The position numbers were made by a program, and so were the translations under genes. A stretch of 64,000 nucleotides of DNA. It comes from an uncultured virus (IMG/VR IMGVR_UViG_3300021960_000064) (lineage: Duplodnaviria; Heunggongvirae; Uroviricota; Caudoviricetes). Of the stretch, positions 23,233 through 43,003 are shown piece after piece. The stretch lies in the IMG/VR virus record IMGVR_UViG_3300021960_000064, one strand, 5' to 3'. Numbering within the stretch: position 1 is the stretch's first letter; each line of letters begins with the position of its first letter. A model generated the notes under the pieces. It made no database searches and was not told the origin of the DNA. It saw only the letters and a program-made list of their open reading frames with translations.

Positions 23233-23544
23233 TTATAAACCTGATGGGTTAGAATCGCTAATATCGTCGTAGTTACAGGTTTTAACGTCATAGACGTCTA
23301 CATGGCGTGTAACAAGATCGTTAGGGTCAATATCTGTAGTGGTGTAGACTACGTTGCTTTGAATTTCTTCAAGGGTAACTCGTTTCTCCACACGTTCAAA
23401 CTGACCAGCGTTGGCTTTACGCAAAGCCTGCTCAGGTGAGTTAGCACGGACAGGATACAAGTCTACTTGAATCAAAGTAAGAGGTACATAGTATGTCTTC
23501 AAGTTAGTGTTTTCGCTTACGAGTGTGAGTTTTGGTTTCTTCAT
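23233..23544 (-). CDS. Hypothetical protein
   Basis: 103 aa; AAGGA RBS; preceded by structured element. Confidence 0.6.
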   Translation of the reverse strand: MKKPKLTLVSENTNLKTYYVPLTLIQVDLYPVRANSPEQALRKANAGQFERVEKRVTLEEIQSNVVYTTTDIDPNDLVTRHVDVYDVKTCNYDDISDSNPSGL

Positions 23545-23568: not shown

Positions 23569-23642
23569 TGCCTAGTGTGATAGTGAAGTTACTGGAGGAC
23601 AATAGTCGGACCTTCACTACCTCTTGCCAGTATCACTAGGCA
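23569..23642 (-). ncRNA. Structured RNA motif, copy A
   Basis: UGCCUAGUG/CACUAGGCA and GGUAGUGAAG/CUUCACUAUC stems, UGUCCUCCAGU loop; second copy at 39387..39455. Confidence 0.65.
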
Positions 23643-23794
23643 AATACTGTTTAACTTGCCGACTTTGCCAAACAAAATAGGTAGGTAGTCAAGCTAATAA
23701 ACGGAAAAACTTTCTAGGGGGGAAGTTTAACCCTTAACTACCTATTTATATTAAGCCTTAAATCTTAAAAGAAATAAAGGACAGTGGGGTAAAT

Positions 23795-23990
23795 AAAATA
23801 AAAGTCGTGGCGAGGATTTGGTGGCATTTATTTAGTCCTCATTAAGCAGTCGTGTCGACATTACCATACTGCACCACTAAGTTAAACTGCGTTTTATGGC
23901 GACTTGAGTTTCACACTTAGCCACTTATGGATTCTTCACCTCTTACAAAGTAGCGTTTTCCTTCTCGGCGACTTTCGGCTTACGCTTAAC
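23795..23990 (-). ncRNA. Candidate ~190-nt non-coding RNA
   Basis: AAAGUCG/CGACUUU terminal stem followed by U-rich tail, internal stems with G-U pairs, TTTACA box upstream, no ORF. Confidence 0.45.
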
Positions 23991-24036
23991 CTAGTAGTAT
24001 TAAGCCTACCATCGTAAATATTGTAAAGCATGGTGT

Positions 24037-24744
24037 TTACTCAAAGTTACCCATGAGCCAAAATACAAGCAAGTATCTATCCCCTTCTTCAACAGGTAGT
24101 CCACGATGCATGTGGCTAAAACTAGGAAACATTAAAGCTGTACCGCTGGGTAAGGGGTCTACAATCCCTTTACGGTGAAACTCAGTTCCTCCACCTTTAT
24201 ACCCACTAGTATTCAGAGGCACCACAACACTAAGATCTGCAGACGTATCATGATGCCAAGCACCCTGTTGTTTTTTGGCTATGTTATAGTTAGCCAACTG
24301 TATACTCCCAGGACGCACGGAGTATCTTTGCCACAACGCCATAAATGCAGGGTTGAGGTAGTTAAGAGCTACTGACCACAGATTATCAAATAAGGGTGGG
24401 CAGTTATCGTGAAGAGTGATTTCTGGTATTTGACGTAAAAAATCTTCGTCAGAGTTAGGTTCAAAACCAAGATAATGTTCCATGTGTTCTATTTCATCTA
24501 ACATCATAGTGCAAAACTCTTGAGTAAATAAAGGCATCGTAAAAACATCTGGTAATACTTCTGTTACATATTCTTGTATAGGTGTAATGAGATCTTTTTG
24601 TCCTTCGTGTATTTCGTATTGTTCAATATCATTCTCGGAGTCTTGTACAAGGGCGAGGGTAGTTTTATCCACGAGCCACTCTCCCTGAACGCCTAGAAGC
24701 GAGTTTTTTAACCGATAAGGCATTATTTGTTTGATGTTTGACAT
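24037..24744 (-). CDS. 2OG-Fe(II) oxygenase (prolyl/lysyl-hydroxylase-like)
   Basis: 'WHHD...GGGTEF...HMHRGLPV..GDRY' HxD..H..R triad. Confidence 0.85.
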   Translation of the reverse strand: MSNIKQIMPYRLKNSLLGVQGEWLVDKTTLALVQDSENDIEQYEIHEGQKDLITPIQEYVTEVLPDVFTMPLFTQEFCTMMLDEIEHMEHYLGFEPNSDEDFLRQIPEITLHDNCPPLFDNLWSVALNYLNPAFMALWQRYSVRPGSIQLANYNIAKKQQGAWHHDTSADLSVVVPLNTSGYKGGGTEFHRKGIVDPLPSGTALMFPSFSHMHRGLPVEEGDRYLLVFWLMGNFE

Positions 24745-32549: not shown

Positions 32550-33195
32550 AGTAACACCATTTACATTTAAACTGGGAAGGTCTAGCAGGGAACTCCTCAG
32601 TCGTCGTCATTTCTACAGCCCTAGCGTTTAGTCTTTCACGCTTGGCGTTTACTGTTTCTTTATCGTATTGATACCTATCTAACTTACCATGGTCTAAATA
32701 CCACAGCTCAGTAGTTATAGTTTCTAACTCTGGTAGCCTTTTAAAAACTATAGAAGCATACAGCTCACACTGTTCTCTATGACCTTCTTGATTACCATCA
32801 TACCTACCTGTTTTAAAATCAATTACCCTAGCGTTTTTATCACCTTCAACATGAACAAAAGCATCTACTTTAGCTCTACCCCATGTATCGTGATCAAACC
32901 AACCTGTGGGTTCCCATTCAGTAGTAAAAGCCCAGTCACCTTCACAAAGTACATGCCCTTTTAAATGCATATCTTTTAATAGGTCAAAGGCTTCTTCAAA
33001 ATCCTGTAGGGCTTTAGGTATCTCATCATACCTACCCCTTATATATTCTTCACATTCTTTATGAATATCTTTACCTCTGTCCATGGCTTTATTGCCAGGT
33101 TCTTTTATTCTTTCTATGTACGCATACTCTGCTTTCTTTGGGCACCCTTCAAATGTTTTGAGTCTACTATAAGACCACTGTGGTATATTAGCCAT
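32512..33195 (-). CDS. PD-(D/E)xK exonuclease (Cas4/RecB-like)
   Basis: 'WSYSRLKTFEGCP', 'KVD...IDFKTG', 'QCELY', C-terminal CKWC..C. Confidence 0.85.
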   Translation of the reverse strand: MANIPQWSYSRLKTFEGCPKKAEYAYIERIKEPGNKAMDRGKDIHKECEEYIRGRYDEIPKALQDFEEAFDLLKDMHLKGHVLCEGDWAFTTEWEPTGWFDHDTWGRAKVDAFVHVEGDKNARVIDFKTGRYDGNQEGHREQCELYASIVFKRLPELETITTELWYLDHGKLDRYQYDKETVNAKRERLNARAVEMTTTEEFPARPSQFKCKWCYFGKQNICPSRHE

Positions 33196-34211
33196 TACTT
33201 TTCCTTGTTTTTGATCGCTTTATTTAGCCAGTCAAACCCAGCAGTGCACCAATCAGTAGCCTCACACCTTTGAACTTCAACCAACGCCTCTTCGTACTCT
33301 TCTTTCTTATAACAGTACCAAGCATCCTGCAGTGAACAGGCTACGTCGGTAAAAAAATCATCCGTAAATTCCATTTCTTGAAAAGGTTTACGGTCCAAAA
33401 AATTAACTAAATCTGTATCCCATGTAAAAGAATCTACTGACATCATAGGATAAGGATTAATAGATTTATTTTCGTATGGGTTAATACTTTCTTTCATATT
33501 GTAGTAATCAAAAGCATCCTCTGCTTCTAATTTAGCATGCATGTCCTCAAATACATCAGTGTATGCATGGAAACTATCACTTATTTGAGTATACTTACCC
33601 ACATGCAACATTAAAGCACTAGCCACATACTCATGTAACATAGACATATGAACTGCATTAGCACCAAACGTTCCCCAAATTATATCATTTGACCTATTAC
33701 TTACTGTCATTAACAACTCATCATCTCGTACTTTAAAATAGATAACAGTATTACAAGGAACATCAACACCTGCTCTATTTAAATCAACTAACGGATCCCA
33801 CATTTGAACAACGCAACGTCTATCGTTAGGATCTGCTTGTAATCTTTGAATAACTACTTCTATTTGATCACCGCCAAAGTGTTCACGCCACCTATAACCA
33901 TAGGCACCGTGTAAAACAACACCATCATCACTATATTCTTTCATGCGTTTATTGTATTTAACCACATAATCTAAATCGTTACGACCGCCAAGCATCCATA
34001 AACTTTCCATAAAATGGAAGAAAGGATTAGCTTTACGAATAGGTTCGAATAAAACTCTTTCAGTAGGATTATGATATACAGTAGCCACAGGACACGGAGC
34101 TTCTATAACTTGACCTACACGACTACCTTTGACATCATCTCTAAACTCATTGAGTACGTCTAGACCTCTTATAAAACCATCATTTACATTTCTACAATTA
34201 ATAACTAACAT
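33195..34211 (-). CDS. Thymidylate-synthase-family enzyme, probable dUMP hydroxymethylase
   Basis: 'GAYG.RW...DQ', catalytic 'PCN', 'RSNDIIWG...AN' (Asn at the dUMP-specificity position), 'H.Y'; modification-cluster context. Confidence 0.8.
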   Translation of the reverse strand: MLVINCRNVNDGFIRGLDVLNEFRDDVKGSRVGQVIEAPCPVATVYHNPTERVLFEPIRKANPFFHFMESLWMLGGRNDLDYVVKYNKRMKEYSDDGVVLHGAYGYRWREHFGGDQIEVVIQRLQADPNDRRCVVQMWDPLVDLNRAGVDVPCNTVIYFKVRDDELLMTVSNRSNDIIWGTFGANAVHMSMLHEYVASALMLHVGKYTQISDSFHAYTDVFEDMHAKLEAEDAFDYYNMKESINPYENKSINPYPMMSVDSFTWDTDLVNFLDRKPFQEMEFTDDFFTDVACSLQDAWYCYKKEEYEEALVEVQRCEATDWCTAGFDWLNKAIKNKEK

Positions 34212-34220
34212 TCATATCTC

Positions 34221-34994
34221 CTAAAATAGTTCACCGTTTTCAGCACCTTGTTTTAATGCTTTTTTCCACATAACTTTTACGTCCTTACGAATCGCACCAC
34301 CCCAAGCAGTTTTAGTTTCTTTTTCTACTACTGTTACTACCTCGGGGTGTAACTTAGCTAATAACTCTGCACCTTCGGACTGCACATCTAAAGTACGCCA
34401 CTCACTACAGCCACCAGCAGCATTAGAACTACCTTGACCTTGAGCATAGTAATAACTTATCTTACTAGGATATCCTTTTTTAAGAAGTTGTAAATTAATA
34501 TCAAAATCTTCCATGACTCTAGTTCTTGCTAACTCTACACCGTCAAACTTATCTAAGTTGTAGGCTAGTAACCTCATGTACCTTGTAGTTTCTACTGATA
34601 GAGCCTCAACTCTATTGTTGCCTTCCCTAGCACTTACGCCACAGTGAGCATAGTCATCAAGCCATACATCTAATAGCCCAAATAACGCAGGGTATTCCTC
34701 AGGTTCAAGGTATCTTAAATGCCAGTCGTTAGTAGCTTTACGAATATAGAAACGTAAGTCATCATCTAACATAACTATTTTATTGTCGTCAGTGTTGTCA
34801 TGAATAAACTTACGCTTAGTAGCTATATCATGAACGGTGTCATCACATACCATAATTTTACAATCATAAGCTGAGTATAAATCTTTCTCATGCTCGTCTA
34901 CTACTAGTGTTACCTCTTTGCGTAATTCTTCTGGAAAGAAAGACAAGGTTACTTGGCTGTCTGCCCTACCTCTTGTAGGAATAAAAATTCTCAT
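34221..34994 (-). CDS. GT-A glycosyltransferase (TET-associated/GREB1/JGT-like)
   Basis: 'IFIPTRGR', 'MLDDD', 'EDFD..LQ', 'NAAGGC'. Confidence 0.75.
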   Translation of the reverse strand: MRIFIPTRGRADSQVTLSFFPEELRKEVTLVVDEHEKDLYSAYDCKIMVCDDTVHDIATKRKFIHDNTDDNKIVMLDDDLRFYIRKATNDWHLRYLEPEEYPALFGLLDVWLDDYAHCGVSAREGNNRVEALSVETTRYMRLLAYNLDKFDGVELARTRVMEDFDINLQLLKKGYPSKISYYYAQGQGSSNAAGGCSEWRTLDVQSEGAELLAKLHPEVVTVVEKETKTAWGGAIRKDVKVMWKKALKQGAENGELF

Positions 34995-35839
34995 TTATTT
35001 ACCTTATATTTTGCACGTGGTCTGCCTTCACCCAAACGTGTACGTTCATATTTATCGAACTCGCAAAGGCAGTGTTCAATATCTCTCATTTCTAGTGGTA
35101 GCATATGCCCTTGTAAATATTCAGGGGAGCAATCTAGTAACACTTTCATCTCAAAATTTAATTGTGGCTTCTTAATCGTTTTATTAAGTTCTCTATGGTG
35201 TATTCTATTTAAGCCACGCTGAGCTCCAGGTCCAGGGTTAGCCCAAGTCATAATATCTTTAGCGTTTCTTAACCACTTAGTGTGACGTAAATCAGTCACT
35301 ACCTCGTAAGCCATGAACCCGCTAAACCCAGCGTGTTTTTGATACCCTTTCCATGTTTCTTCTAACGAATCTTTTATCATAGGTGGGTGGTGTTCATATA
35401 AAGGTGTGAGTATTTTATCTATAGTTTGTTCTATTTTAGTACCACCTAACGTGCCTGTCAACATGTACGCACCAGTATATACTTTTTCTTTTCTATCCAT
35501 TCTACCTTGCATTATAGCTTTTAAACGTTTAGGATTCCAATGCTCAGGAAAACCTAACTCTTCTAAAGTGTCTGGCCAATTAATTTGCCTAGCCATAGAC
35601 ATAGCAAAAGGTAGGTTAGGGTGGTCGGCATAAGGTTCTCGCCAGTTGACTCGTATCCATTCTGTAACTCTATCTAGTTCACGATATACATTACAAAAAC
35701 TATACTCAGTTAGTATGGCATCACTAGTCCACGGATAAGACACGCCATTTTGGCGACGTAGATATACAATATGACGTTCGTTTAAATAATTAAAAAACTT
35801 TTGTATTTCTTCTTGATTCATACTGCTTCCTTTACCCAC
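34991..35839 (-). CDS. aGPT-Pplase1 / 5hmdU DNA kinase helical domain protein (stand-alone)
   Basis: 'ERH.VY..R....PWT.D.IL..Y.FCNVYRELDR', 'GFMAYEVVTDL', 'GPGA.RGL', 'IEHCLCEFDKY'. Confidence 0.8.
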   Translation of the reverse strand: MGKGSSMNQEEIQKFFNYLNERHIVYLRRQNGVSYPWTSDAILTEYSFCNVYRELDRVTEWIRVNWREPYADHPNLPFAMSMARQINWPDTLEELGFPEHWNPKRLKAIMQGRMDRKEKVYTGAYMLTGTLGGTKIEQTIDKILTPLYEHHPPMIKDSLEETWKGYQKHAGFSGFMAYEVVTDLRHTKWLRNAKDIMTWANPGPGAQRGLNRIHHRELNKTIKKPQLNFEMKVLLDCSPEYLQGHMLPLEMRDIEHCLCEFDKYERTRLGEGRPRAKYKVNK

Positions 35840-36365: not shown

Positions 36366-37865
36366 TTAAATCATAACCTTAAATTCTTTTCTCGTCTTAC
36401 CTTGTATAATGTGTAAGTTTTGTTTTGTTCTTGTTACACCGACATAGAAGGCTCGACACTCGTTATCAGGGCTTTTGTACAACTCGTCAAAAGTTCTAGT
36501 AGCCATGTCTGTTATTAATACTACATTCTCACACTCGCCACCTTTTGTAGCATGTATAGTGTTCAATTTAATTCGTGAAGAATTTACTTTTTGGTGCTTA
36601 CGCAAACAAGATATAATGTACTCCCTTTGAGCGTCTCCAATTAACTCAAATGCTTGATGCCATATAACATCTATCATGAGTCCATAGTTTTTCTTTAACT
36701 GTTCGATACTTAATAATGTATCTGGGTCAGCTTGTTTTAAAGTTTTAAACCCAGTTCTTACACCCTTACCAGTTTTCATGTAGCCATATACTTTCTTAAT
36801 TCTAGAGGCTTCTATACTTTCCCCTTTGCGTAATAATTCCCAGTCTAAGATAGCTTTGATTAAGTTTTCTGTTACTGAAGGCTTATTGTTTTTAGTGTAG
36901 AAATATCCAGCAGTTCTAAGGTGTTGCTCAACGTTATTTAACAGATAATTATTACGTGCTAAGAAAAGCCACTCACCCTCACTGTAGTCTATATGTTCAT
37001 AGCTGTTGTGGTAAGTAACACTTCCTTCATCTTCTCTAGGAATCCAAGTTTTATGTCTTCTCTTTTTAATACGCTTAACTATGTTAAGAGCTACATCATG
37101 CACTTTCTTAGGTACTCTGTAACTTTGCTCTAGGTATATTTCTTTACCAGCTAAATTAATAAAGTGATCCGTGTCAGCTCCTGCCCATTTATATATTGCT
37201 TGATCATCATCACCTGCTATATAAACATGTTCTAAATCTTGTGCAAGTTTATGAACACATTTCCATTGTAGAGCTGATAAGTCTTGAGCCTCATCTACAA
37301 TCAACGCTTTTAACGGTGGACGTGTATCAAAATCAACAAAGCCAGAAAGCATATCTGTGTAGTCCATTAAGAAATTAGTTTGTTTAAAATTATTGTAGCT
37401 ACTACAGAACCAATCAAAATGAATCCAACTTAAATCACCTTGAGCCACGTTCCACGCATCTCTATAACTTTTACAGGTATTACGTGCCATGTTTTCTAGG
37501 AATAACATATTGTCCCCTAGACTATTTAACGCCATTAAATTTTCACCGTCCCAAGCTGAGTTAATACGTTCACCTACTAACTTACTAAACGCTCTTAAAT
37601 CTTTACGGTCTAGTATGTCCGACTTACTTAGTCCTTGCCAAAAATAACATAGAGAGTGTATAGTTCTAAAATATATAAGTTGGTCTTGTTCATAATCAAA
37701 CTTATCTACAGCTCTGGTTAGAGCTTCAGTTGCAGCTTTTTTAGTAAACGCAAGATATGCTAATTCGTAAGGTTGTATGTCTTCTTTAAATAGTTCTTCT
37801 ACCTTATTAAGTAAGAACGTTGTCTTACCAGTTCCAGGTGGTCCAAGAACTATGTTCCAACTCAC
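36366..37865 (-). CDS. SF1 (UvrD/Rep-like) DNA helicase
   Basis: 'GPPGTGKT', 'DEAQD', 'GDDDQAIY', 'QSYR', 'TIHATKGGE', 'YVGVTR'. Confidence 0.92.
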   Translation of the reverse strand: MSWNIVLGPPGTGKTTFLLNKVEELFKEDIQPYELAYLAFTKKAATEALTRAVDKFDYEQDQLIYFRTIHSLCYFWQGLSKSDILDRKDLRAFSKLVGERINSAWDGENLMALNSLGDNMLFLENMARNTCKSYRDAWNVAQGDLSWIHFDWFCSSYNNFKQTNFLMDYTDMLSGFVDFDTRPPLKALIVDEAQDLSALQWKCVHKLAQDLEHVYIAGDDDQAIYKWAGADTDHFINLAGKEIYLEQSYRVPKKVHDVALNIVKRIKKRRHKTWIPREDEGSVTYHNSYEHIDYSEGEWLFLARNNYLLNNVEQHLRTAGYFYTKNNKPSVTENLIKAILDWELLRKGESIEASRIKKVYGYMKTGKGVRTGFKTLKQADPDTLLSIEQLKKNYGLMIDVIWHQAFELIGDAQREYIISCLRKHQKVNSSRIKLNTIHATKGGECENVVLITDMATRTFDELYKSPDNECRAFYVGVTRTKQNLHIIQGKTRKEFKVMI

Positions 37866-39367
37866 AACATATCCTCTGTAAAATCATGAGCGTCTAGAGT
37901 TTCATCTCTATACTCAAACTCAGGTATGTACCAGACGTTAGTACCCCTACCTTTTAAATTCCAGAACACATGTTTAGCGTTAAGGTCTCTTAGTTTACTG
38001 GCAATCTTATTTGTTTCTAGTTCCGTAAACCTGTGTTTAATAAGAAACTCTTTTAAGTCTTTTATTCTAAAATAGGTTTTACCTTCTTCAGTGAATGGTT
38101 TACCTAATAATACTTCTTCCCTTGTACTAGCTTGAGCTAGGTCACTACAGAAAGATTCTAGTAGCTCAATAAACTGACCGTCTAATGAAACATCTGTACT
38201 AACTTCTATTATTTCCATACCATTGTCCATAAGAGTTTGTATTTGTGCTTGCCATGCACGTTCATTAGTTCTAGGTGGCATAATATTTAAAGTTTCCATA
38301 CAACTACGTTGAAACTTAGTTTGATTTTGTAGTTGTTCAGTAGTAAGTTCAAGCCTTTTATCATCAATAGATAAAAACCAAAGGGGTGGCTTAGAATCTA
38401 ATTTAGCTAGACTAGAAAAAGTAGGTGCAGTGTTGCCTTTACCTACGCCAAACTTACACGTTCTACATTTTTGTACGTCGCAGTAAGAACGGATAGGTTC
38501 ATCATTACATTTATAGTTATATTCTTTTTTATCTAATGTGCTAATTAAAGTTAGTACTTCTTTAGCTGGTAAAGGTGGGCTTACAAATTTACGATTATAT
38601 TCTTCTATGTCAGTTTGCCATACGTCAGGAGAAGCTTGTTTTAAATATACCCCCACGTTAAACAAACCATTATTACGAGTACCCTCAGGAAAACCCTGTT
38701 TGAGTAATGTTTTTAAACAAGGTGGTCCACCTTCCATTTCCTCTAGTTCTGGTACGCAAAGTTCTAGTAACTCTTCGCCAGTTACCTTACGACTATTAGC
38801 AAAAGCAATAAACTGCTCAGGAGTAAGCGACTCACCCTTAACATTAAACGCATATCTTATAGAAGTTTCACCACCAAAATATGGCATGTTCAACCAGCTA
38901 CCTATATCACCACGGTCAACTAATACTTCCCTTTGTTTAGGAAATATTTCTACACCGCCATAACCAAGACCTGCTGCTAACTCTCTAAGTTTATCTTGCA
39001 TATCTCCTGCACTTACCCAATCAGTAGTAAAACAGAAAATATGAGCACCACCACTTTTACTTCTACAAACTACTAAAGGTACTTTAAAAGATTCTACTTT
39101 CTTTACTAACTCTGGTAAGTCTAAGGGATAAGTATCTACATCAACTACTCCCCACTTAACTAGGTTATCTTCATTGATAGGAATTATACCTAGCCCAAGT
39201 TTACCTTCAAGATGTGACTTCCAATTATCTAAATTGGCTCCGATAGTTTTAATTGTTTTGGCTACGCCTTGTTGTTTTTGACCTGTGTTTTCACTATTGA
39301 TAGTGAAAGTACCGTGAGCTCTTTTTGACCCTGCAAATAACTCACTAAATTGTTCTACTAAATCCAA
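37862..39367 (-). CDS. Archaeo-eukaryotic primase (primpol) with PriCT-like domain
   Basis: 'DVD', 'RSKSGGAH', 'LNMPY', 'PPC....EGTRNNGLF'. Confidence 0.75.
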   Translation of the reverse strand: MDLVEQFSELFAGSKRAHGTFTINSENTGQKQQGVAKTIKTIGANLDNWKSHLEGKLGLGIIPINEDNLVKWGVVDVDTYPLDLPELVKKVESFKVPLVVCRSKSGGAHIFCFTTDWVSAGDMQDKLRELAAGLGYGGVEIFPKQREVLVDRGDIGSWLNMPYFGGETSIRYAFNVKGESLTPEQFIAFANSRKVTGEELLELCVPELEEMEGGPPCLKTLLKQGFPEGTRNNGLFNVGVYLKQASPDVWQTDIEEYNRKFVSPPLPAKEVLTLISTLDKKEYNYKCNDEPIRSYCDVQKCRTCKFGVGKGNTAPTFSSLAKLDSKPPLWFLSIDDKRLELTTEQLQNQTKFQRSCMETLNIMPPRTNERAWQAQIQTLMDNGMEIIEVSTDVSLDGQFIELLESFCSDLAQASTREEVLLGKPFTEEGKTYFRIKDLKEFLIKHRFTELETNKIASKLRDLNAKHVFWNLKGRGTNVWYIPEFEYRDETLDAHDFTEDML

Positions 39368-39386: not shown

Positions 39387-39455
39387 GCTAGTGTGGTGAG
39401 AGCCCTAACTGGAGGACAGGAGCTTGGAGGCTCTACACCTTACAGCATCACTAGC
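39387..39455 (-). ncRNA. Structured RNA motif, copy B
   Basis: GCUAGUG/CACUAGC and GGUG-AGAGCCU/GGGCUCU-CACC stems, UGUCCUCCAGU loop. Confidence 0.65.
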
Positions 39456-39493
39456 AAGACTGAAATAAATCCCAAGCCCTGTCTAACAGATTA

Positions 39494-40276
39494 TTAGAAT
39501 GGTGCTTCTGACGTACTTTCGTTATCATTTGACTGGGATAAATTTACTTCACCCACAGTACTAGCAAAGTCTTTTGCTGCTTGATAGAAGAACATTTCAT
39601 CTTCTCCTAACGGTCCATCTAATGTTATATTCCAACCAAACCAAGTACCACGGTCGTTAGACTCAGCTTTGGTTTTCATAACATACTTATGGCTAAAACT
39701 TGCAGGGGTAAACACTTTATCTCCCGAACGCATTTTTATACTCGCCATAACAGAGTTCCAAGTACGAGACTTTTTAAGCTGAGTACCAGCCATAGCAATC
39801 ATCGCACTGTCATAACTACCGTCTTCACTCAAAGACAACACAAAGTGTGTCGCTGAAGTTTGTATATAGTTACCATTCTCTAACATATCTCTACCCATGT
39901 TATCTTTAGTAGTTTTAGACAAGATACTAGCGTCATCGTGTTGAGCTACTAGCCCACCCCCAGACTCTCTTGGTCCCCACTCTAAAAATAAACGCTTATA
40001 AGCCACAGGTAATGCTACCAATGGATTATCGTTTGTATAGAGTTTACCAGTGACAGTATTTATAATGTCACCAGCACTTGCACCTTCGACATACTTACCG
40101 TCGCTCTTCATTACCTCTGGGCTCATAGCCTGAAGTACTTTTAAGCGAGGTATAGTAATATCCTCGGCAGTCAACGTTTCTAGCCCACTGTTAGCATCTT
40201 CTATAAAAGCAGATGGTACAGCTACACTAGTATTTTCTTTTTCGCTTATAGCGTTTTCACTTTTTTCTTTACTCAT
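39494..40276 (-). CDS. Putative ssDNA-binding/annealing protein
   Basis: 'IPRLKVLQ..SPE', acidic tail ending 'EAPF'; replication operon. Confidence 0.6.
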   Translation of the reverse strand: MSKEKSENAISEKENTSVAVPSAFIEDANSGLETLTAEDITIPRLKVLQAMSPEVMKSDGKYVEGASAGDIINTVTGKLYTNDNPLVALPVAYKRLFLEWGPRESGGGLVAQHDDASILSKTTKDNMGRDMLENGNYIQTSATHFVLSLSEDGSYDSAMIAMAGTQLKKSRTWNSVMASIKMRSGDKVFTPASFSHKYVMKTKAESNDRGTWFGWNITLDGPLGEDEMFFYQAAKDFASTVGEVNLSQSNDNESTSEAPF

Positions 40277-41557: not shown

Positions 41558-43003
41558 ATGACAGAATTTATATTTAAGACAGATCCTTATGATCATCAAC
41601 GCCAAGCCTTAACTGAGTCTTGTGATAAAGAAGAGTATGCTCTTTTTATGGAGATGGGTTGTGGTAAATCTAAAGTAGCTATAGATAACTTTGTACATCT
41701 GTATGGTCAAGCTAAAGTATATAATGTTTTAATTGTAGCCCCTAAAGGTGTTTATAATAATTGGATAGCTAAAGAAATACCATCACACATGCCAGACCAT
41801 GTTACACACGACATAGTAAAGTGGCAAAGTAATCATACTAAGAAATTTGAAAGAGAAATGTCTAAACTTTTTGAGTTTGACCATAAACTAAAAATCCTTG
41901 TTATGAATATAGATGCCTTTAGTACTAAAAAAGGTTGTCAATATGCTAGTAGGTTTATACAACATAATAAAACTATGTTTATAATCGACGAAAGCACAAC
42001 TATAAAAAACCCTGAAGCAAAACGCACAGCTAATTGTGTAAGGTTAGGTAAGTATGCACATTACAAAAGAATCTTAACAGGTTCACCTATCACTAAAAGT
42101 CCACTAGATTTATATAGTCAGTGTATGTTTTTAGATCCAGCAATATTAGGCTTTAGTAGTTTTTATTCTTTCCGTGCAAGATATGCAGACTTAGTAGAAA
42201 AACGTGGACACGGTAGAACTTTTAAGTTTGTTGCAGGATATAAAAATTTAGAAGAACTTAATGAAACTTTAGAAAAGTTTAGCCATAGAGTTTTAAAGAA
42301 AGACTGTTTAGATCTACCTGAAAAAGTTTATATGCGTAGAGAAATACAAATGACACCTGATCAAGCTAAAGCATATAAAGAATTACAAAACTTTTCAGTG
42401 ACACTTTTAAAAAATTCTAAAACTGTAACCATAAACCATGTAATAACGCAAATCATACGTTTGCATCAGATTTCATGTGGATTCACAGTAACCGATGACG
42501 GAGTTACTACCGAAATATCTTCTCAGAGGCTTCCAGAATTGCTCTCTATTATAGAAGAAACTGATGGAAAGATGATTATTTGGGCAAACTACAGATATGA
42601 CATACAACGTATAGAAAAAACCTTAAAAGAACTTTATGGTAATAATTCAGTAGGAACTTACTACGGTGGAGTTGAACAAGAAGAACGTGAAAGGGTAATT
42701 GAAGAGTTTCAAAACCCAGACAGTCCTCTTAGATTTTTTGTAGGTAATACTCAGACTGGTGGTTACGGTATAACATTGACTGCTGCTAGTACGGTGGTGT
42801 ATTACAGTAACAACTATGATTTAGAAAAACGTCTACAATCAGAAGACCGTGCTCATCGTATAGGTCAAACTAATAAAGTTACTTACATAGATATTGTTTG
42901 TGAAAAAACAGTAGATGAAAAAATAGTAAAAGCATTAAGGAAGAAACAATCTATTGCTAGTTTAGTTCTAGGTGAAGATCGTATTACTGACTGGTTAGTC
43001 TAG
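41558..43003 (+). CDS. SNF2-family (SF2) helicase
   Basis: 'MEMGCGKS', 'IIDES', 'LTGSP', 'QSEDRAHRIGQ'. Confidence 0.92.
   Translation: MTEFIFKTDPYDHQRQALTESCDKEEYALFMEMGCGKSKVAIDNFVHLYGQAKVYNVLIVAPKGVYNNWIAKEIPSHMPDHVTHDIVKWQSNHTKKFEREMSKLFEFDHKLKILVMNIDAFSTKKGCQYASRFIQHNKTMFIIDESTTIKNPEAKRTANCVRLGKYAHYKRILTGSPITKSPLDLYSQCMFLDPAILGFSSFYSFRARYADLVEKRGHGRTFKFVAGYKNLEELNETLEKFSHRVLKKDCLDLPEKVYMRREIQMTPDQAKAYKELQNFSVTLLKNSKTVTINHVITQIIRLHQISCGFTVTDDGVTTEISSQRLPELLSIIEETDGKMIIWANYRYDIQRIEKTLKELYGNNSVGTYYGGVEQEERERVIEEFQNPDSPLRFFVGNTQTGGYGITLTAASTVVYYSNNYDLEKRLQSEDRAHRIGQTNKVTYIDIVCEKTVDEKIVKALRKKQSIASLVLGEDRITDWLV

Follow-up and report, generated by a model that had tools for sequence, protein, structure and literature searches.

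The window analysed here, bases 1-64,000 of a 66.6-kb virus record, raises the question of what the structured RNA motif found twice on its minus strand is for, and whether it is, as an initial annotation proposed, a cis-regulatory switch whose UCCUCC sequesters a Shine-Dalgarno (SD) sequence, or else an operator controlling the level of primase. The gene set includes a portal, terminase, family A polymerase, AEP primase and helicase (PHROGs/Pfam), and the closest annotated relatives, 023Pt_psg01, DSL-LC04 and the Pelagibacter phages HTVC023P and HTVC027P, are distant, with 49-54% polymerase identity. Since seawater and marine RNA libraries contain pieces 99% alike to the window, the phage is likely to be marine in origin.

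The presence of two copies on the minus strand was readily confirmed. Each of two shared words occurs exactly twice in the 64 kb, a second copy of the linked pattern would be expected by chance about 5e-8 times, and a model search recovered no third copy in the same genome. G-U cells outnumber A-C cells by 80 to 12 among 772 paired cells, which identifies the minus strand as the RNA strand, as the G-U pairs of the two copies had suggested. The two helices first described, P1 and P2 (helices c and d below), make up the minimum free energy (MFE) fold in each copy (z -2.6 and -2.3), and both copies do end 9-15 nt ahead of an SD-like AGGA(G). What had been delimited, however, is only the 3' two-thirds of the element: among relatives of the primase locus conservation begins about 30 nt further upstream, the real starts lie at 23669 and 39483 rather than at 23642 and 39455, and a helix of 11-16 bp (a) together with the true partner of the RCUG sequence had been missed.

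The complete element is predicted to be an RNA of about 105 nt, folded into a nested double pseudoknot of four helices. Its strands follow the order a-b-c-b'-d-a'-L3 (CUCY)-d'-R-c' in all of the 22 versions gathered, and the helices share no base. Strand a, some 27 nt further upstream, pairs with most of what had been taken for the loop of P2, and strand b provides an upstream CAGY which pairs with RCUG. Per-sequence fits, allowing one bulge or mismatch, give lengths of 11-16 bp for helix a, 5-6 for b, 6-9 for c and 10-12 for d; the register table behind them was fitted to the structure and was used as a source of lengths only, never as evidence of covariation. The first loop is a single nucleotide in 18/22 versions, helices a and d abut (0 nt) in 18/22, and helix a is more stable than shuffled upstream sequence in every version (0-25 of 500 shuffles as stable).

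Copy 1 (23569-23669, minus strand; 100.2 bits with the model) represents subtype B and lies directly before the ribosome-binding site of a predicted ORF of 103 aa, function unassigned (23233-23544, minus strand), for which we found no PHROGs or Pfam family and whose atlas neighbours are all hypothetical. Its strand a (23659-23669) pairs with 23609-23598 over 11 bp with one bulge, a helix that 14 of 500 shuffles equal in stability; strand b (23644-23649), with a single-U loop after it, pairs in the alignment with 23633-23628 over 6 bp; strand c (23634-23642) pairs with 23577-23569 over 9 bp, in the MFE fold and the alignment; and strand d (23612-23621) pairs with 23588-23579 over 10 bp, eight of the nine pairs counted changing on both sides. 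The free loop L3, which starts with the conserved CUCY, occupies 23589-23597.

Copy 2 (39387-39483, minus strand; 86.2 bits) represents subtype A and fills the gap between a Pam3 gp34-like gene (39494-40276, minus strand; PF23977 and phrog_2402, function unassigned) and the AEP-type primase gene (37862-39367, minus strand; phrog_21866, PF22548); a U run follows it. Here strand a (39472-39483) pairs with 39427-39415 over 12 bp with one bulge (0/500 shuffles as stable), strand b (39457-39462) with 39448-39443 through five standard pairs and one C.U, strand c (39449-39455) with 39393-39387 over 7 bp (MFE fold and alignment), and strand d (39428-39439) with 39405-39395 over 11 bp with one bulge (MFE fold), leaving 39406-39414 as L3. 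The primase gene starts with a TTG codon, and most close relatives have one in the corresponding position. Strand a has an early alternative partner in the b/c region (39472-39483 with 39454-39460; 23659-23669 with 23640-23645, minus strand); seven columns of this alternative are fully paired in subtype A, and it is possibly a folding intermediate.

Covariation was counted on plain MAFFT alignments of subgroups against 500 shuffles, and the sequences being related, the shuffle counts are not to be read as probabilities. Among 13 versions of subtypes B and D, 14/35 pairs show a two-sided change, a number reached in 0/500 shuffles and compared with 2-3 in slid controls; three of these changes fall in helix a and eight in d, and the pairing of the mostly invariant helices b and c rests on two and one, respectively. 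Five versions of subtype A give 5/33 pairs (6/500 shuffles). The expectation that homologs would covary was thus borne out for B/D and for A; the four versions of the convergent subtype, C, taken alone gave 2/39 two-sided pairs (57/500 shuffles), which is not significant. The same counts bear on details of the pairing first proposed. For RCUG, a partner in the loop CAGU shows no two-sided change and 88.5% pairing in 13 homologs, against two such changes and 94.9% for the upstream CAGY, and the suggested UCCUC hairpin closed by YUG/CAG would need a YUG that is already paired in helix a.

Three pairs of helix b and five of helix c form an invariant core of eight. In subtypes C and D this invariance was imposed by the search patterns, and only the comparison of A with B is unbiased; both of these were found through proteins, and they have the same core with helices a and d entirely different in sequence. 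CUCY stands at the start of L3 in 22/22 versions and was absent from the patterns that found the family. As far as comparative sequence analysis can establish it, the element combines four mutually compatible helices with an invariant b/c core and a turnover of sequence in a and d.

The 22 distinct versions, gathered by protein-anchored and pattern searches and counted after removal of duplicates and chance matches, fall into four gene contexts that correspond to the subtypes. Subtype A lies between the gp34-like gene and the primase gene in 5/30 loci, the other 25 having a plain hairpin there; subtype B, in 5/7 loci, closes an array of RNA cassettes ahead of the 103-aa gene; subtype C, in 6/24 loci, stands where an operon ends facing a Mu F-like gene of convergent orientation, without an SD downstream, the other 18 loci having nothing similar in the slot; and subtype D is the last or next-to-last cassette of another array. 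Four of the 22 versions end against the convergent Mu F-like gene. Among related virus records at least 90% complete the motif is present in one of six. This patchy presence across contexts and loci marks the element as a dispensable mobile unit without a fixed downstream gene, gained and lost as a unit in all four contexts.

A search with the model (R1) matched 17/46 related records, and its 19 strong matches are all known copies; the alignment behind R1 is out of register between subtypes and covers helices c and d only, so that distant members may be missed. Three weak matches (12.6-15.6 bits) were rejected, as were 6/11 matches of one pattern search and 1/16 of another (L047, 19.8 bits), in which helices a and d are absent. 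Failures in the helix test or the model also removed most of the 96 matches of another pattern, 19/49 metagenome matches and 10/10 matches in bacterial genomes. A looser pattern with part of helix c freed gave no new member among the 120 matches listed, and none of five annotated related phages matched, a weak negative, there being no candidates at first look.

The element belongs to none of the families tested. The Rfam scan (Rfam 15) called for at the outset gave no match at gathering threshold in the window, nor in 20 + 20 related loci, and together with the two-sided changes and the excess of G-U cells it supports the description of a structured, covarying and uncatalogued RNA on the minus strand. 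E-value scans gave weak matches only, the best over the motif being to psbNH (13.8 of 45 bits) and, on the other strand, to SNORA52 (20.1 of 71 bits); these are inconsistent between subtypes and were discarded. Three-stem H-type pseudoknots such as the coronavirus frameshift element and the preQ1-II aptamer have the order of the inner strands, b-c-b'-d-d'-c', and a first loop of 1 nt. Unlike these, the loop of the third stem is captured here by a helix of 11-16 bp from the 5' end, the element is non-coding in location, and there is no sequence likeness by Rfam. No description of such a motif was found in searches of the literature, and its strand order is not known to us from any described RNA. 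The core words are absent from supplementary files 3-6 of a survey of structured RNAs in IMG/VR (PMC10690425), whose other files may list the motif as an unnamed candidate.

Copy 1 is the last cassette of a structured-RNA array, three further structured-looking cassettes lying upstream of it at 23683-23991 on the minus strand (about 23991-23881, 23877-23807 and 23790-23683). Close relatives add, drop or replace these cassettes; none of them matches an Rfam family at gathering score, and a search with the array found no DNA match in the annotated phage collection. The middle cassette (23807-23877), read by eye, is an apparent three-way junction with two hairpin loops able to kiss, and the loop words change together in loci L065 and L066. 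The Rfam drum RNA, with a threshold of 43 bits, matches the stretch 23948-24020 (minus strand) only weakly, at 15.2 bits.

Signs of transcription were sought in RNA-labelled sequence libraries, 21 of which share just 0.06-0.14 of the words; 4/24 runs were examined by contig mapping. Contigs from RNA libraries extend together over 23612-23978: one (X2) spans 23612-23961 with 0 substitutions, running from the upstream cassettes into copy 1, whose first 58 nt it includes, and a second (X1) spans 23800-23978. Such contigs are blind to strand, ends and level and may derive from DNA, and we take them as a weak sign of expression of the cassettes; no listed piece covers copy 2, which says nothing on that copy. 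Contig stops (two at 23961, one at 23612) were considered as RNA ends and dropped, since variant sites interrupt contigs; the sequence hanging loose at 23612 resembles a sequencing adapter. All four versions in the convergent context have a TAAAAT or TATAAT box 6 nt upstream of helix a, three of them with an extended -10 TG; the flanks around the box are AT-rich, and a -35/-10 promoter scan found nothing at the box in L048 and a different register in L051.

Helices a and d, of about one turn each, stand in an X-Y-X'-Y' arrangement, and the path of L3 past them was followed with A-form coordinates, checked against a deep-groove minimum of 10 A and ignoring fraying. L3 reaches along a groove-following path over helix a in 7/22 versions and along a path shorter by one turn, which rings the 5' strand, in 18/22; four versions of subtype C fit neither path without fraying, and helix d does not force threading. 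Coarse bead models in three geometries gave an unknot in 47/62, 53/72 and 78/87 completed builds, the determinant of a trefoil in 11/62, 14/72 and 8/87, and the short L3 path in 50/62, 38/72 and 86/87, figures which are sampling counts rather than energies, 181/402 placements having been impossible to route. Determinants of 5 and 7 (10/221 models) are probably closure artefacts and were set aside. On this modelling the 5' strand is likely to be ringed, and a true knot is possible, being allowed by the models and not required by them.

The reading that we favour, with a probability of roughly 35%, is that the element is a stand-alone, self-locking and nuclease-resistant small RNA which would act in trans on a putative host partner, most plausibly as a decoy. 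It is ranked first on two grounds: in context C there is no gene that the element could regulate and no structure for which it could substitute, and the cassettes of the arrays are reshuffled as accessory cargo would be. The RNA would be transcribed with the neighbouring genes or cassettes, or from the -10-like box in the convergent context; as the chain grows, helix b and then helix a would form, and d and c would then lock the fold. The 5' strand would be ringed by a' and L3 and the 3' strand wound inside the closed loop, and neither end should therefore unzip easily. Cleavage by host RNases in the A/U-rich flanks, followed by stalling at the fold, would leave behind a stable RNA whose conserved core and CUCY loop could provide the binding surface for the partner; as a side effect, such an RNA could also take the place of the hairpin that otherwise follows the gp34-like gene. 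What the comparisons above provide is the fold and the distribution; the locking, the processing and the partner are what we infer.

By analogy, the block proposed for the element is the protein-free one of the exonuclease-resistant RNAs (xrRNAs) of flaviviruses and plant viruses, which, according to PMC8374639, are likewise about 100 nt long, with a pseudoknot-closed ring around the 5' strand of the kind predicted here. Their ring measures 15-16 nt in that source against a predicted 20-25 nt here, outside the xrRNA range; moreover, the ring in our element would circle a paired strand, the strand order is different, the carriers are DNA phages, and there is no Rfam match. Even without a knot, a fold locked by a ring and carried by DNA phages would bring the xrRNA principle to bacterial viruses and would offer a compact stabilising element.

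The same locked fold could serve purely in cis, marking a boundary between transcripts at which the upstream mRNA has its 3' end protected and the downstream mRNA its 5' end, or else terminating transcription, with no partner in trans. We consider this unlikely. The gap before the primase gene is always structured, by the motif in the five loci that have it and otherwise by the plain hairpin, which is terminator-like in L004, the one such locus scanned, and the copies of subtype A retain a U-rich run after helix c; xrRNAs, according to PMC8374639, stop 5'-3' nucleases including RNase J1 without the help of a protein. Nevertheless, 18/24 relatives in the convergent context have no such element in the slot, no terminator pattern was found at copy 1 or copy 2, and subtypes C and D lack a U run. 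Besides, neither the eight invariant pairs of the core nor a conserved CUCY would be required of a mere block.

The reading of the initial annotation, that UCCUCC occludes the SD or that the motif is an operator of the primase gene, fares poorly as a general function. UCCUCC is found in only 8/22 versions, with its first two bases paired in helix a, and CUCY is all of the supposed anti-SD that every version shares, so sequestering of the SD by UCCUCC is not the general function; 4/22 versions have no SD downstream, and the motif is missing from 25/30 relatives of the primase locus. Judged by its sequences, then, the family as a whole neither always lies 5' of a gene nor has an anti-SD that tracks the SD.

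A broader form of translational control in cis is still alive and would fit part of the data: the exposed CUCY might form a third pseudoknot with the downstream SD, or the fold might nucleate a single-strand-binding protein (SSB) over the A/U-rich spacer, like the operator of T4 gene 32. Within 40 nt of the motif end GGAG occurs in 8/22 versions and AGGA in seven more (total 15/22), CUCY is universal, and in one subtype (L171) the loop could make 7 bp with the SD region (-9.0 kcal/mol), the SD sitting in a small hairpin loop. According to PMC535899, the T4 operator consists of a compact pseudoknot, an A/U-rich spacer and a ribosome-binding site, an anatomy resembled by the b/c pseudoknot and spacer of subtypes A and B only, and a likely SSB gene adjoins; that the gp34-like protein is SSB-like is our inference from gene position and an acidic tail ending in an aromatic residue, in a protein with no such database label. 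Against this, 7/22 versions have no SD-like word within 40 nt, CUCY is retained where no gene follows, and the downstream genes are unrelated to each other. In A and B, the two subtypes of the window, the free loop makes only 3-4 bp with the SD, and it does not change in compensation where the SD varies between GGAG and GGAA; weaker alternative pairings exist, and the one counted shows no two-sided change. The T4 operator is the leader of the SSB gene itself, whereas our element lies after the SSB-like gene, not before it, or far from it, is about four times larger, is dispensable, absent from most primase loci, and is present also where there is no gene to follow. All in all, this explanation seems to us doubtful.

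HDV-like ribozymes are nested double pseudoknots of about 100 nt, as the element is predicted to be, here in intergenic phage DNA, and such a compact arrangement, in which the core is invariant and one pair varies between Y.Y and Watson-Crick, could be imagined as a new class of self-cleaving ribozyme cutting phage transcripts between genes or cassettes. To our knowledge, however, the strand order of the element differs from those of the HDV, twister, pistol, hatchet and hammerhead folds; compared with HDV-like ribozymes, the helix lengths differ as well, and the element has no Rfam match. The patchy intergenic spread would suit a ribozyme, and one context adjoins a Mu F-like gene, known ribozymes being enriched near Mu-like phage genes according to PMC10085705. 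Since neither the window nor the 40 related loci gave an Rfam match at gathering score, there is no known ribozyme nearby or in the slot, and nearly all invariant bases are engaged in standard pairs, which leaves few for catalysis; we hold a new ribozyme class to be quite improbable.

To return to the stable RNA that we favour, the most far-reaching form that it could take is a natural deep trefoil, in which selection across four lineages would hold helices a and d at one abutting turn, the free short ends of the released RNA would thread through, and a knot-locked and nearly indestructible small RNA would result. This must be called a long shot. Two interleaved helices of at least 10 bp, as in the X-Y-X'-Y' knots of Seeman, define candidate knots in PMC4829277 and PMC5381007, and both helices have such lengths in 22/22 versions. 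The candidates named in PMC4829277 (ColIb-P9 repZ, CCR5 and hTER) lie inside long RNAs, whereas the present element is compact and natural, with lengths held across four lineages while the sequence turns over, with helix d directly adjoining helix a and with a second pseudoknot inside the first loop, all of this in a predicted fold. A single natural RNA knot has been identified, according to bioRxiv 10.64898/2026.03.16.712236. The element thus represents a natural test object of 105 nt for RNA knots, with covariation behind both long helices and 22 versions to choose from; a knot, if proven, would make it categorically new.

Since covariation is blind to the difference between intra- and intermolecular pairs, strand a might instead pair in trans, giving dimers, rings or filaments rather than a threaded monomer, which would ease the strain in subtype C and recalls the strand-exchanged dimers and cages that short natural RNAs form according to bioRxiv 10.64898/2026.07.01.735769, but monomers could be built for all three geometries tried, and helix a, if it forms on the growing chain, would favour pairing in cis, so that this arrangement is very improbable.

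Whichever function applies, the element is a point of entry to the interchangeable RNA cassettes that abundant marine phages carry in arrays. Another phage group (L059, 1250-1700, and also L181, L182, L192 and L209) has a second array of exchangeable structured cassettes, unrelated to the first and with U-rich spacers; the SD after it sits in the loop of a 5-bp hairpin. Elsewhere in the window, in which no tRNA or tmRNA was found, the helicase gene (phrog_62; 41558-43003, plus strand) is the sole long plus-strand gene; it runs towards the structural genes and away from the replication operon. The regions 33195-35839 and 24037-24744 (both minus strand) encode thymidylate synthase family, glucosyltransferase-like and 2OG-Fe(II) oxygenase proteins, a combination that suggests modified bases in the DNA of this phage.
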